64,000 nt of DNA from assembly GCA_019752595.1 (NCBI GenBank), contig JAIELV010000001.1, positions 56,486-120,485 of the forward strand. Direction: 5' to 3'. Position numbers and translations under genes: made by a program. A model generated the notes under the pieces. The model ran no database searches, was not told where the DNA came from, and saw only the letters and a program-made list of their open reading frames with translations. Within the stretch, counting starts at the first letter, position 1. Each line of letters begins with the position of its first letter. Shown here one piece after another: positions 3,547-62,684 of this stretch. This stretch comes from Patescibacteria group bacterium. Lineage in GTDB: Bacteria; Patescibacteriota; Minisyncoccia; Phycocordibacterales; Phycocordibacteraceae.

Positions 3547-4200
3547 GTGGCAGAAACGCATTCTTTGGGTTTCGCGCAGTCTAAGTACATCGTTGGTGTG
3601 GACGAGGTTGGTAGAGGGCCATTAGCTGGACCTGTGTCAGTCGGTATTGTCATTATTCCTGCAGCGCATGATATTTCACAGTATTTCGCGAAGCTTACTG
3701 ATTCAAAACAAATGACTGAAAAGGCGCGCGAAGCGACATGTGTTGAGGCGGAACTTTTGCAGAAGAATGGAACTATTTCATATGGTGTTTTTTCAAGCTC
3801 CGCAGAGCAGATAGATGAGTGGGGAATTGAGGCAGCAATTTCCGTTGCGATTGTAAAAGGAATTACAAAGCTCGCGCCGAAGCCTGAGGAGTGCGAAGTG
3901 TTTCTCGATGGGCGTTTGAAAGCGCCGAAGGAATACAAGCAGCAGGCAATTATTCGTGGTGATTCTTTAATTCCTGCGATTTCGCTCGCGTCCGTTGTTG
4001 CCAAAGTTTCCCGTGACCACTACATGGCAGGAATCATTCATCAGGAGTTTCCCGAATACGGATTTGATTCGCACAAGGGATACGGCACAGCCTCCCACAT
4101 ACGCGCCATCAAAGAACTTGGCCCGTCCTCAATTCACCGAAAGAGCTTTCTTTCAAATATATTGTCGAAGTCTGCAGGAGCAAGTACTATTGCTTCATGA
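3547..4200 (+). CDS. rnhB: ribonuclease HII
   Basis: VGVDEVGRGPLAGPV motif. GTG start at 3547, with TATAAT at 3535-3540 only 6 nt upstream, which suggests a leaderless or short-leader transcript. Confidence 0.9.
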   Translation: MAETHSLGFAQSKYIVGVDEVGRGPLAGPVSVGIVIIPAAHDISQYFAKLTDSKQMTEKAREATCVEAELLQKNGTISYGVFSSSAEQIDEWGIEAAISVAIVKGITKLAPKPEECEVFLDGRLKAPKEYKQQAIIRGDSLIPAISLASVVAKVSRDHYMAGIIHQEFPEYGFDSHKGYGTASHIRAIKELGPSSIHRKSFLSNILSKSAGASTIAS

Positions 4201-4574
4201 CTGATAACCAGCAGGTACCACAAGATCTTCCTGTCGACAAAGAGCTTGCCGAGCGAGTGACGTCCTTGTATGCGCAAGTAGATCAGGTGTTGGAAGAGTT
4301 GCGTGTGCCCGATGAAGAGAAGAAAGAGGTTGAAAAAAATCTGATGGAGGCAATTGCTGCAGATTTACTGGTTCGCCTTGGAGAAAAACTTTCTGATGAA
4401 GATAAACAGTCGCTCGCCTCAATAGGGGAATCGCTCCCACCAGGCTCGGAGCCCGACCTCGGTGCTGTTGCGGGGTTTTTCAGAGAGAAATTTTCTCAGG
4501 AAGAATTAGTACATGCACTTGCCGAAGCAACCGAAAGCGTCCTTGTCGAGTTTACCGAAGCTATGCGAAGGTAA
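4197..4574 (+). CDS. hypothetical acidic protein
   Basis: ATGA start/stop overlap with rnhB. 125-aa Glu/Asp-rich ORF with no recognised motif. Confidence 0.5.
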   Translation: MTDNQQVPQDLPVDKELAERVTSLYAQVDQVLEELRVPDEEKKEVEKNLMEAIAADLLVRLGEKLSDEDKQSLASIGESLPPGSEPDLGAVAGFFREKFSQEELVHALAEATESVLVEFTEAMRR

Positions 4575-5291: not shown

Positions 5292-5355
5292 ATATCCCCG
5301 AACCCGTTTCCAACGGGTTCTTTCTTTGATACCGTACTAGTAGAAGCTCTTTCAT

Positions 5356-6237
5356 ATGGCATCCCGACACCTATCACGCTCTGTAGTGTTGCAAACGCTC
5401 TTTGAGAGCGACATGCAAAACACCCTCTCTTTGGAGAGCGCAAAAGCCATATTGAAGAGAAACCTCGAAGAATATTCCTTGGGCGATACTGATCGTCCGT
5501 TTGCCGACGCTCTGCTTACAGGAGTTTTGGGAAAACGTGAAGAGGTAGACGCTATTATCCAAAAAGCTGCTCCGCAGTGGCCACTGGACAAAATCGCGCC
5601 TGTTGACCGCAACGTGCTTCGTATTGGCCTGTATGAGCTTTTGTTTGGGGACCGCGATGCAACACCACCAAAAGTCGCACTGAACGAAGCAATTGAACTT
5701 GGGAAATCGTACGGCGGGGATTCTTCAGGAAAATTTGTGAACGGCGTTTTGGGAGCGGTGTATCGTGAAATAGGCGAGCCAGGCAAAGCCGATGCAATAA
5801 AAGTGCCCGTACCCTTGCCACACGAAGCGCTGGGCGGTGTGGTGTTGACCGCAGTTGTTGATGGGGTGACTCACATCGCTCTGGTACACGATATTTTCGG
5901 ACGATGGACACTGCCAAAAACAAAATGCCAGGAAAATGAACTTTCAGACGCTGCCGCAACGCGTGCTTTAAAGGAAGAGCTGGGGGTCGCGAGTGTGCTT
6001 TCGGAGCCTTTGGGAGAACATGAGTACATAGCACATGAACCCACAACAGGAAGGATTGTGCGCACCGTGGGATACTTTCTTGCGAAAGTAGAAACACTTA
6101 TAAAGTTAAAGTGTAAAGAGTGCAAAGGAATCACTGAGGCGAAATGGTTTTCAGAAGAGGAAATTCCGCGCATCCCGACGTATAATGACCTCCTTCCGAT
6201 TATTGAATCCGCACTCGTGGCAGCAAAAAGAGCATGA
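5356..6237 (+). CDS. nusB: NusB transcription antitermination factor fused to a C-terminal Nudix-like domain
   Basis: N-terminal ~140 aa is NusB-like (DRNVLRIGLYELLF...PKVALNEAIELGKSYGG). C-terminal ~150 aa has the Nudix fold signature W-LPK-x-ENELSDAAATRALKEELGV, a degenerate Nudix box with RA in place of RE. One continuous frame with no internal start signal seen. Confidence 0.8.
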   Translation: MASRHLSRSVVLQTLFESDMQNTLSLESAKAILKRNLEEYSLGDTDRPFADALLTGVLGKREEVDAIIQKAAPQWPLDKIAPVDRNVLRIGLYELLFGDRDATPPKVALNEAIELGKSYGGDSSGKFVNGVLGAVYREIGEPGKADAIKVPVPLPHEALGGVVLTAVVDGVTHIALVHDIFGRWTLPKTKCQENELSDAAATRALKEELGVASVLSEPLGEHEYIAHEPTTGRIVRTVGYFLAKVETLIKLKCKECKGITEAKWFSEEEIPRIPTYNDLLPIIESALVAAKRA

Positions 6238-6959
6238 ACGCACCTCAGAAAGACATTGTTGAAAAATTTGCCGTACGTTCAGGGGTGACGTTTAAAGATG
6301 CGTCGCTTTTGGAAACTGCACTCACGCACCGCTCATACTTAAATGAAACGCGCGCCAGCGCGCGTGCGCTAGGCACGCACCGTACGCACAACGAACGTTT
6401 GGAATTTTTGGGTGACGCAGTATTGGAACTTGCGGTTACAGATTATCTCTTTCGTGCGTTCCCAGAATCTGATGAAGGTACGCTCACCAGTTACCGTGCC
6501 GCACTCGTGAACGCGGTCATGCTCGGTGGTATTGCTGAAGGTTTAGGTATAAACGAATTTTTACTTCTTTCTAAAGGTGAATCGCGTGACACAGGAAGAG
6601 CTCGCCAAACGATTCTTGCAAACGCGTTTGAAGCCGTCGTTGGTGCGGTGTATTTAGACCAAGGCTACGAGGCAGCGTATGGATTCATCGAACGCCACGT
6701 ACTTTCAAAAGTCGACGAAATGGTAAAAAGTGGAGCATGGCGCGACGCAAAGAGTGAATTTCAGGAATTGGCGCAAGCAAAGTATGGACTCACGCCGAAA
6801 TACGACACGGTGAGCGCAGACGGCCCCGATCACGACAAACGTTTCGTAATCTCGGTTTCCGTGGGTGACGTCGCTATTGCTGAAGGTGAGGGGAAATCAA
6901 AGCAGGAAGCGGAGCAGGAAGCTGCAAAAAAGGCTCTTACCGAAGAGAAAAAGAAGTAG
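6234..6959 (+). CDS. rnc: ribonuclease III
   Basis: ERLEFLGDAVLELAVTDYLF RNase III signature plus a C-terminal dsRBD. ATGA overlap with the upstream gene. Confidence 0.95.
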   Translation: MNAPQKDIVEKFAVRSGVTFKDASLLETALTHRSYLNETRASARALGTHRTHNERLEFLGDAVLELAVTDYLFRAFPESDEGTLTSYRAALVNAVMLGGIAEGLGINEFLLLSKGESRDTGRARQTILANAFEAVVGAVYLDQGYEAAYGFIERHVLSKVDEMVKSGAWRDAKSEFQELAQAKYGLTPKYDTVSADGPDHDKRFVISVSVGDVAIAEGEGKSKQEAEQEAAKKALTEEKKK

Positions 6960-49362: not shown

Positions 49363-49545
49363 ACTATTTATCAAGAGTTGCGGGGAGGGAATTGGCCCGA
49401 TAATCCGCACGGCAACCATCTGGAAACACAGAAAGGTGCCACTTCCAACCCTTACCCAGCCTACGCGAAAGCTTTGGCGGGCAGAGAGGGAAAGATATCC
49501 GATGACTTTCGTCTGACGTATCTTTCCGCAAGGAAAGATTTTTTA
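49363..49545 (+). promoter_or_regulatory. SAM-I (S-box) riboswitch with terminator, in the metK leader
   Basis: TATCAAGAG..GGGGAGGGAATTGGCCCGATAATCCGCACGGCAACC..GGTGCCACTTCC matches the conserved S-box blocks. An expression-platform terminator, tctttcc-gcaa-ggaaaga plus T6, lies at 49521-49545, ending 12 nt before the metK ATG. Confidence 0.85.
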
Positions 49546-49556
49546 ATTAAATCACT

Positions 49557-50537
49557 ATGATAAGAACAGCAGAATCAGTTACGCAGTCGCATCCCGACAA
49601 AGTGTGCGACCAAATATCAGACGCAATTTTAGACGCGTGTCTTAAGGATGACCCGACGTCACGCGTTGCGGTTGAAACTATGGGCGGCCACGGCATTATT
49701 TCAATTACAGGCGAGCTGACAACGAAAACGTACGTCAACATGCGCGCGATTGCTCAGCAGGTGTACAAAGACTGCGGATATGGAGAAAACATAGGCGTCA
49801 ACGTGAACGTCGTTGAGCAGAGCCCTGAAATTGCCGCAGGTGTGAACCAGGACGGCGCAGGTGACCAAGGAATCATGGTTGGCTACGCAACTGCAGAGAC
49901 TCCAGAAATGCTTCCTTTAGAAGTAATGCTCTCGCGCCATTTGGCGCGCGCTATGGGGCCTCGCGACGGAAAATCACAGGTCACGGTACAGGACGGGAAA
50001 GTGCTTTCGTTTATCACTTCAGTCTGTGCGCCAGATGCGGCATCGGAAGCTGCGCTTGAGAAAGCGGTGAATGATCACATTGTGCCAATTCTCGCGCCTG
50101 GTGTTGATTTGAAAAAAGCATGGCTTCGAAACCCGAACGGAAAGTGGGACATCGGCGGTTTTGCCGCGGACACGGGACTTACGGGAAGAAAACTTGCAGT
50201 CGACAATTATGGTCCGTCCATTCCTTTGGGTGGCGGATGTTTCTCAGGTAAGGACGCGACAAAAGTAGACCGCTCGGCTGCGTACATGGCGCGAAGAATT
50301 GCGGTTGATTACCTCAAAAAGAAAGGTGCGAAAGAGGTGTATGTACATGTTGCATACGCAATCGGTGTCGCCGATCCTTTGATGGCAGTAGTAACTGTTG
50401 ATGGCGTACAGGAAAACATCAGCGGATACGATTTGCGTCCGAAGGCGATTATTGATTTCTTGGACCTTAGGAAGCCTCAGTTCAGAGTGACGTCACAATA
50501 CGGTCACTTTGGAAACGGCTTTACCTGGGACCGCTAA
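49557..50537 (+). CDS. metK: S-adenosylmethionine synthetase (compact 326-aa form)
   Basis: ESVTQSHPDKVCDQISDAILDA, GAGDQG and DRSAAYMARRIA motifs. Confidence 0.95.
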   Translation: MIRTAESVTQSHPDKVCDQISDAILDACLKDDPTSRVAVETMGGHGIISITGELTTKTYVNMRAIAQQVYKDCGYGENIGVNVNVVEQSPEIAAGVNQDGAGDQGIMVGYATAETPEMLPLEVMLSRHLARAMGPRDGKSQVTVQDGKVLSFITSVCAPDAASEAALEKAVNDHIVPILAPGVDLKKAWLRNPNGKWDIGGFAADTGLTGRKLAVDNYGPSIPLGGGCFSGKDATKVDRSAAYMARRIAVDYLKKKGAKEVYVHVAYAIGVADPLMAVVTVDGVQENISGYDLRPKAIIDFLDLRKPQFRVTSQYGHFGNGFTWDR

Positions 50538-61987: not shown

Positions 61988-62015
61988 GTCTGACCTCTTG
62001 TACAGTTCTCTTTCT

Positions 62016-62684
62016 ATGAGTGAACAACGCCTTGAAGGTGCACCTAGAGCCATCGAATGTGTGGGCAGGGAAAAGTTGGAACAGCGAATACAGGATATTA
62101 ACGAATGGGCGACACGCGAAGGTCTTACGGTGAAATATGTTTCGGGAATGGTGGCACTTCGTGGGAATCCAGAAGGCGGTTGGCCGCAAGTCTTTTTAGT
62201 GAACGGCTCAAGCAAAGGAGTGCCGAAAGAATTTTGGCAATTTCCAGGAGGGTATGTGCACCCCGACGACCCTGACCACGTCCTCGGACTTCAAAGAGAG
62301 CTTGATGAAGAGCTTGGGGTTGCTTTGCCCGAGCAAATTGCATATCTGGAAACCTATATACCGAAAATGAAACCTGGCGCTACGGAAGTGCTTGCAATAC
62401 ACGCGTTTGCCATGCCTGTCCCTGAGTGGGACGAACGCACCATGACGCTCGGTTCTGACGTCAGTCAGTTCGTATGGACTGATGATCCTTTTAGAGGTGA
62501 AGGCGAAGAGCCTCGCATTTTGACCGAGCAGGTGGACTTCATACTACGACGCGTTATTGGATATTCTGGTCCCAATAATAAGAACACCTGCGACGATGAA
62601 ATGTACAACGGTATTCCTGCATCCCTTGCAGAAATGATTCGCGAGCGCGAAGAGTCCGCGTCCCTTGTAGAGCAGGGTGCGTAG
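62016..62684 (+). CDS. Nudix hydrolase
   Basis: Nudix box GGYVHPDDPDHVLGLQRELDEELGV. ATG at 62016; the track gives a TTG at 61998. Confidence 0.75.
   Translation: MSEQRLEGAPRAIECVGREKLEQRIQDINEWATREGLTVKYVSGMVALRGNPEGGWPQVFLVNGSSKGVPKEFWQFPGGYVHPDDPDHVLGLQRELDEELGVALPEQIAYLETYIPKMKPGATEVLAIHAFAMPVPEWDERTMTLGSDVSQFVWTDDPFRGEGEEPRILTEQVDFILRRVIGYSGPNNKNTCDDEMYNGIPASLAEMIREREESASLVEQGA

Follow-up and report, generated by a model that had tools for sequence, protein, structure and literature searches.

A Nudix domain with an often degenerate catalytic box fused to NusB throughout a patescibacterial lineage: a possible non-catalytic accessory module of the antitermination factor

In a stretch of 64,000 nucleotides from a Patescibacteria group bacterium (assembly GCA_019752595.1, contig JAIELV010000001.1, positions 56,486 to 120,485; hereafter the window, whose own positions are used below), the antitermination factor NusB is joined in frame to a Nudix-fold domain with a degenerate catalytic box. 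The gene, called nusB::nudix here, lies on the forward strand at 5356-6237. NusB is a universal and well-studied factor, for which a permanent addition throughout a lineage is unusual, and Patescibacteria are known for tiny genomes and non-standard ribosome biogenesis. In the reading that we favour, with a probability of roughly one half, the fused domain would be a mostly non-catalytic accessory module of the housekeeping NusB, binding a nucleotide or an RNA 5' end and working with RNase III on the precursor of ribosomal RNA (pre-rRNA). The analysis shows the fused architecture, its conservation in a constant gene order, the Nudix subfamily, the decay of the box and the persistence of the binding residues, whereas absent activity, ligand binding and a function within the antitermination complex are the parts of this reading that we infer.

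The open reading frame (ORF) starts with ATG and encodes 293 amino acids (aa) plus the stop. An earlier note, made from the nucleotide sequence alone, had described it as a single ORF combining a complete NusB domain with a C-terminal Nudix domain, and profile searches bear out this description. Pfam detected NusB (PF01029) at aa 7-137 (E value 2.7e-33; 115.6 bits against a cutoff of 23.1) and NUDIX (PF00293) at aa 169-277 (2e-9; 38-40 bits against a gathering score of 21.1), so that the C-terminal half lands in the Nudix family and not in another one. Based on Pfam, matches to profiles of PDB proteins and Foldseek, and for the first half also on TIGR01951, the NusB domain extends over aa 1-139 (5356-5772, forward strand) and a Nudix-fold domain of the diadenosine polyphosphate (ApnA) hydrolase type over aa 156-290 (5821-6225, forward strand). 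The two are connected by a linker defined by family alignment and AlphaFold2 (AF2) (aa 140-155; 5773-5820, forward strand), which carries the motif G140-E-P142-G-K144...K149. The AF2 model of the fused protein (predicted local distance difference test, pLDDT, 88.7; predicted template modelling score, pTM, 0.68) consists of helices at aa 4-139 for the NusB part, a low-confidence linker and an alpha/beta/alpha C-terminal domain. Despite predicted disorder (pLDDT below 50 at aa 142-150), the beginning of the linker is conserved, with G140 and P142 invariant and K144 and K149 nearly so, and this segment may serve as a partner-binding motif.

The fusion is real and ancient, because it is found in at least 120 protein clusters with 51-97% identity and as single ORFs in a fixed gene order. 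NusB was present in all of these clusters and a precomputed NUDIX match in 118 out of 120. Nearly all members were 281-311 aa long, the few shorter ones being apparently incomplete, and the median length was 297 aa among 239 full-length fused proteins. The clusters came from several assembly sources and were labelled only with versions of the name 'NusB', under Patescibacteria, Paceibacterota or Minisyncoccia. Species-representative genomes (one per species) were scanned for D[VAI]Fx[RHK]WTL[PS]K, a motif typical of the family, which gave at least 599 stretches. Of these, 597 were confirmed by tblastn, and the titles of the records mention Kaiser-, Zambryski-, Nomura-, Wolfe- and Lloydbacteria, Paceibacterota and Parcubacteria. 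Among the best 80 loci, NusB and Nudix were located within one ORF in 78, whereas the other two ended at a contig end, and synteny was almost invariant: dnaE (reverse strand), rnhB, rpmF, nusB::nudix, rnc and smc, the same order as in the window. In independent assemblies (Logan and JGI), the 293-aa protein recurred with identities of 97%, 94% and 88%, and no stop or frameshift separated the NusB and Nudix parts. A frameshift or mis-join was ruled out by these assemblies and by the single ORF in 78 of the best 80 loci. It is scarcely credible that the fusion is an artefact of this kind, or two adjacent genes merged, given that hundreds of independent assemblies from several sources show the same single ORF and that the linker sequence itself is conserved. 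Gene fission, that is, a stand-alone copy of the domain beside nusB, was also considered and rejected, as the best apparent case (P0124), the one close copy that was checked, is truncated by the end of its contig and followed by rnc. Genuine stand-alone relatives do occur away from nusB (P0141 on a 1-kb contig and P0143 elsewhere). The earlier note knew of no such architecture, and no paper on a NusB::Nudix fusion was found in the searchable literature; yet it is very common in public Patescibacteria genomes. This constitutes an annotation gap: every source name seen was plain 'NusB', and the Nudix half was ignored.

The NusB half matched the NCBIfam equivalog model TIGR01951 (nusB) with 122.5 bits against a cutoff of 88.35, covering model positions 2-130 of 131, and solved NusB proteins in the PDB aligned with it at E values of 2e-17 to 2e-12. 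In Foldseek, its superposition on Thermotoga maritima NusB (1tzv/1tzt) gave a target-normalised template modelling (TM) score of 0.83 and a root-mean-square deviation of 2.0 A. F16 and F127 align with Y18 and F122 of Escherichia coli NusB, respectively, and both are invariant in 32 family members; Y18 is buried in the NusB-NusE interface of E. coli and F122 is reportedly important for antitermination (Stagno et al., PMC3177189). Across the fused proteins, mean pairwise identity was 58% in the NusB domain and 42% in the Nudix domain, and the columns that were at least 90% identical numbered 41 out of 139 in the former and 21 in the latter. Considering the TIGR01951 match above cutoff, these 41 conserved columns and the retained equivalents of Y18 and F122, the NusB half looks fully functional, and we take the fused protein to be the functional housekeeping NusB of these Paceibacteria/Parcubacteria-type bacteria. 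Compared with NusB of known structure (T. maritima 1TZT, E. coli 1EY1/3D3B and Aquifex aeolicus 3R2C), it has the same helical fold, its N-terminal 139 residues give full-length matches that exceed the curated cutoffs, the two aromatic residues are shared and the gene is located amid translation and RNA-processing genes. It differs in having approximately 150 additional C-terminal residues (linker and Nudix domain) and in the direct coupling of its gene to rnc. We also examined whether the protein could be RsmB (Sun), the 16S rRNA m5C967 methyltransferase that carries an N-terminal NusB-like domain. This identity was rejected, as the best RsmB model reached 59.2 bits against a cutoff of 319 and only through its N-terminal domain, and no methyltransferase domain is present. 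RsmB nevertheless provides a precedent for a NusB-type RNA-binding domain placed N-terminal to an enzyme domain acting on rRNA, whereas the C-terminal domain here is a Nudix domain.

Within the Nudix superfamily, the C-terminal half falls into the branch of ApnA hydrolases (aq_158, Ndx1, CT771, NUDT2 and MutT1). When a profile of 30 C-terminal domains was compared with the PDB, the top matches were Chlamydia CT771 (4.8e-14) and Aquifex aq_158 (8.7e-12), followed by Thermus Ndx1 (1.7e-11), Mycobacterium tuberculosis Rv2985 (MutT1; 1.5e-10) and human NUDT2 (6e-10), with the worm diadenosine tetraphosphate (Ap4A) hydrolase also among them. Foldseek gave target-normalised TM scores of 0.85-0.88 against aq_158 (3i7u) and also ranked the Nudix domain of NrtR from Shewanella oneidensis high (3GZ8; E value 2.3e-8). 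In the alignment, W184 and K188 occupy the positions of W-x3-K in the 'WxxPKG' motif, and Y276 that of an aromatic residue shared by NUDT2, aq_158 and CT771. By alignment with NUDT2, Y224 (codon at 6025-6027, forward strand) corresponds to the specificity tyrosine of ApnA hydrolases, namely Tyr82 of NUDT2 (Tyr87 in 1XSC numbering) and the tyrosine of aq_158, Ndx1 and CT771, which contacts the adenine ring (Nudix-clan review, PMC5389931). The fused domain shares its alpha/beta/alpha fold, W-x3-K, a tyrosine in the X-loop and an aromatic C-terminal residue with the ApnA hydrolases compared here (A. aeolicus aq_158, 3I7U; Thermus thermophilus Ndx1, an Ap6A hydrolase, 1VC8; Chlamydia trachomatis CT771, 4ILQ; human NUDT2, 1XSC; and the N-terminal domain of MutT1/Rv2985), which are its best sequence and fold matches. 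The fused domain departs from them in two box substitutions, in its NusB partner and in a box that varies across the whole family.

The two substitutions are those that the earlier note had read from the sequence, and both hold. The box (aa 189-211; 5920-5988, forward strand; TKCQENELSDAAATRALKEELGV) reads T189-x5-E195-x7-R203-A204-L-K-E207-E208-L-G210-V211 against the consensus GX5EX7REUXEEXGU. The box Gly is replaced by T189 and the Glu of RE by A204 (codon GCT, 5965-5967), so the box is not intact, and the window protein keeps four out of six polar box residues. The next Glu (E207) varies in the window's own clade, where E, D, N, R, Q, L, T, H or K is found. On account of A204, T189 and this variation in close relatives, the domain is most likely a poor or inactive pyrophosphohydrolase.

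We searched the domain profile against 1.84 billion representatives and sorted the matches by the presence of a NusB domain. A full canonical box was found in 85% of stand-alone relatives (n=48) vs 16% of fused representatives at 50% identity (n=44), 33% of fused loci from species-representative genomes (n=75) and 6% of fused close relatives of the window protein (n=118). The Glu of RE was the most affected position, being Glu in 8-37% of fused proteins vs 88% of stand-alone ones; its replacements in fused proteins were A, V, K, I, G, S and T. A neighbour-joining tree calculated without the box columns implied about 25 changes at position 204, a count that is indicative only, as the tree is rough (about 130 columns). 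Loss of the catalytic box seems to have occurred repeatedly, and deep branches contain members in which it can no longer be recognised. For example, P0241 (GGDGNEN) has G, D, G, N and N where E195, R203, E204, E207 and G210 would stand, and still keeps the gene order dnaE-rnhB-nusB::nudix-rnc; such erasure with retained synteny fits relaxed selection on catalysis. On the other hand, D179, W184, K188, Y224, W264 and Y276 were 91-100% conserved in all samples, even where the box was unrecognisable, and K188, Y224 and Y276 reached at least 95%. The persistence of these residues while the box decays implies that selection keeps the fold and the nucleotide-contacting face rather than the metal-binding triad. 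The fused proteins thus resemble non-catalytic Nudix domains in sequence, combining a degenerate box with retained ligand-contacting positions. Six further residues (A175, V177, F181, A226, F265 and D278) were conserved in fused proteins only, not in stand-alone relatives.

The earlier note had offered two readings, an inactive nucleotide-binding module or a hydrolase tethered to NusB. Since catalytic positions drift freely in fused proteins and nucleotide-contacting ones are nearly invariant, the comparative data favour the inactive module for the window protein and its clade, whereas a tethered hydrolase may still apply to the 6-33% of fused homologues with a canonical box. In the enzymatic version, NusB would bring an active Nudix enzyme to the boxA-bearing pre-rRNA leader, where it would remove the 5'-triphosphate or Np4A- or NAD-type caps, or degrade Ap4A locally, and so prime decay of the leader after RNase III cleavage. 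We consider this doubtful. The closest relatives are true ApnA hydrolases, E195, R203, E207 and E208 are kept in the window protein, and the canonical box in 16-33% of diverse fused homologues makes activity plausible for that minority; RsmB offers the precedent of a NusB-like domain on an rRNA-modifying enzyme, non-canonical boxes are functional in some Nudix enzymes, and in E. coli, Nudix enzymes of the RppH type remove Np4A caps from RNA (PMC7705103). The Glu of RE, however, is missing here and in 63-92% of fused proteins, the replacements at E207 occur in the window's own clade, and entire boxes are erased in deep branches that retain the dnaE-rnhB-nusB::nudix-rnc order. Moreover, mutating the equivalent Glu in MutT and Ndx1 cuts kcat by several orders of magnitude.

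In the favoured reading, NusB permanently carries, through the conserved flexible linker, a Nudix domain that derives from an enzyme of the Ap4A/Ap6A-hydrolase type. The window lineage has lost the metal-binding Glu of RE (A204) and the box Gly (T189). The residues that hold the nucleotide in ApnA hydrolases are kept, namely K188 (W-x3-K), Y224 (X-loop) and Y276 (C-terminal aromatic), and we propose that the domain binds an adenine nucleotide, a dinucleoside polyphosphate or an RNA 5' end without catalysis within the rRNA antitermination complex. On the pre-rRNA leader, it may thereby stabilise NusB or regulate it, together with the co-expressed RNase III.

Non-catalytic Nudix modules of this sort are represented by CFIm25/NUDT21, NrtR and the NUDT9H domain of TRPM2, which form a functional class and not a homology family. 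CFIm25 is a dimeric stand-alone subunit that recognises RNA itself. With a box of RLx2EI, it binds ATP and Ap4A without hydrolysis and takes part in the 3' processing of pre-mRNA (PMC2425470, PMC5389931). We regard it as a functional analogue of the fused domain, since the Glu of RE is replaced and its Nudix fold operates in a transcription-coupled RNA-processing complex; unlike the protein described here, it is eukaryotic and lies outside the closest sequence and fold matches, and the likeness is in working principle, not in family. NrtR, a high-ranking fold match, is a Nudix domain with impaired catalysis that serves as a ligand sensor on a transcription factor. Its partner is a winged-helix DNA-binding domain and it senses ADP-ribose, whereas in the present protein a domain of the ApnA type is joined to an antitermination factor that binds RNA. 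A third comparison is SuhB. In E. coli, NusB/E is only transiently on the rRNA leader until SuhB joins (bioRxiv 10.64898/2026.03.17.712431; PMC4807359), and the complex thus stabilised holds the leader at the polymerase and enhances its cleavage by RNase III during transcription (bioRxiv 10.64898/2026.03.17.712431). The likeness is that a protein of an enzyme family, inositol monophosphatase, acts as an accessory stabiliser of NusB/E on the leader; in contrast to the Nudix domain, SuhB has the unrelated inositol monophosphatase fold and is a separate polypeptide.

Several points weigh against a non-catalytic nucleotide-binding module. The retained E195, R203, E207, E208 and G210 leave room for residual or altered activity in the window protein, and GDP-mannose glycosyl hydrolases function with an RLx2AE box through changed chemistry (PMC5389931). 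The perfect box that persists in 6-33% of fused homologues indicates that the ancestral fusion was probably catalytic and that some lineages may still be so. Two of the invariant residues, W184 and W264, may be part of the fold core instead of contacting a ligand. In addition, the domain is acidic (median isoelectric point 5.2, net charge -6), which argues against broad electrostatic RNA binding and leaves a general RNA-binding surface unsupported. An acidic surface is, on the other hand, compatible with a purely structural or protein-docking Nudix fold that has no small-molecule ligand and, as a SuhB-like stabiliser, contacts NusA, NusG, S10, S4 or RNA polymerase. The six residues conserved in fused proteins only, the GEPGK linker motif conserved though predicted to be disordered, the SuhB precedent and the protein-interaction roles known among Nudix-clan members all point in this direction. 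We nevertheless regard such a docking module as unlikely, as the most invariant residues include the nucleotide contacts K188, Y224 and Y276, which are not obviously needed for docking. A more specific form of ligand binding, in which the domain would act as a sensor or anchor for Ap4A-type alarmones or for the Np4-capped or triphosphate 5' end of the pre-rRNA, clamping the leader to RNA polymerase like SuhB, is more speculative still and seems rather improbable. If true, it would couple the transcription of rRNA and its processing by RNase III to signals of nucleotide stress in these bacteria with minimal genomes.

The searchable literature yielded no account of the NusB::Nudix architecture, its conservation throughout the lineage, the coupling to rnc or the repeated decay of the box, whereas both domain families were already known, and there are precedents for pseudo-Nudix modules and for NusB-like fusions (RsmB). 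A NusB with an ApnA-type Nudix module, co-expressed with RNase III and repeatedly deprived of catalytic but not of binding residues, offers a testable entry point to a possible control of rRNA synthesis in Patescibacteria by dinucleoside polyphosphates or RNA 5' ends. Furthermore, the presence of canonical and decayed boxes on the same scaffold provides a model for how enzymes become regulatory pseudo-enzymes.

The genes around nusB::nudix were also analyzed. Downstream, the ATG of rnc (RNase III; 6234-6959, forward strand) overlaps the stop codon of nusB::nudix as ATGA (6234-6237). Because of this overlap the two genes are probably co-transcribed and translationally coupled. Upstream lies the conserved neighbour rpmF (ribosomal protein L32; 5013-5291, forward strand). 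It is separated from nusB::nudix by a strong terminator-like hairpin (5300-5327, forward strand), which has a 9-bp stem and a 3-nucleotide loop at 5300-5320 (GAACCCGTT-TCC-AACGGGTTC) followed by a T-run. No consensus promoter was detected between this hairpin and the start codon of nusB::nudix. In many related loci, a TATACT-like -10 element precedes the ATG by about 20-25 nucleotides, so the leader may be very short. A boxA-like sequence (GCTCTTTCATA; 5346-5356, forward strand) ends on the A of the start codon and agrees with 10 out of 11 positions of GYTCTTTAANA, a consensus that was taken from PMC5725501 and may not be the boxA of these organisms. TCTTT was found within 16 nucleotides of the nusB::nudix start in 27 out of 71 related loci vs 2.6% of random 16-mers from the same loci. 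That it is a generic feature of translation starts was rejected, since only 2 out of 53 other gene starts in the window have it. Autoregulation of Nus factors by translational repression has been shown by Baniulyte et al. (PMC5725501), and the boxA-like sequence is a possible candidate for a NusB/NusE autoregulatory site. Between rnhB and rpmF, the window also contains a 125-aa ORF (4197-4574, forward strand) without a Pfam match, which is kept in the closest loci (L001, L003-L006 and L011) and was undetected in more distant ones.

Members of the same Nudix subfamily were also observed in other contexts. P0143 (150 aa; L085, 6001-6453), which has a canonical box and is among the closest true stand-alone relatives, is surrounded by integrase, DNA-methylase and phage-replication-like genes, apparently in a mobile element or phage. 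P0191 (577 aa; L084, 3605-5338), a long paralogue, consists of about 330 unassigned N-terminal residues followed by a NusB-like domain and a Nudix domain of this subfamily (box GERIREG). Its neighbours, an NB-ARC/STAND NTPase, a DDE transposase and an HEPN_Swt1 gene, resemble a defence island, unlike the housekeeping locus. Two other fusions were recognised by eye, in which the Nudix domain is preceded by a DnaA-C-terminal-like helix-turn-helix region (P0216, 379 aa) or by a multi-pass membrane region (P0251, 450 aa).

Elsewhere in the window, the second Nudix gene that the earlier note had called canonical does exist (61998-62684, forward strand; 228 aa) and its REx2EE is intact, but the box as a whole (G-x5-D-x8-RELDEELGV) is near-canonical only, with Asp for Glu and a spacer one residue longer. 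It resembles the NUDT16-type variant listed in the Nudix-clan review (PMC5389931), and no NCBIfam model matched the gene above cutoff. ApaH, YqeK, RppH and SuhB were not seen among the scanned ORFs, which represent part of the ORFs of the window, itself part of the genome. No tRNA or rRNA genes were detected in the window. Its only Rfam match is an S-adenosylmethionine (SAM) riboswitch (RF00162; 48.4 bits, above the gathering score) at 49365-49499 on the forward strand, just upstream of an ORF at 49557-50537.

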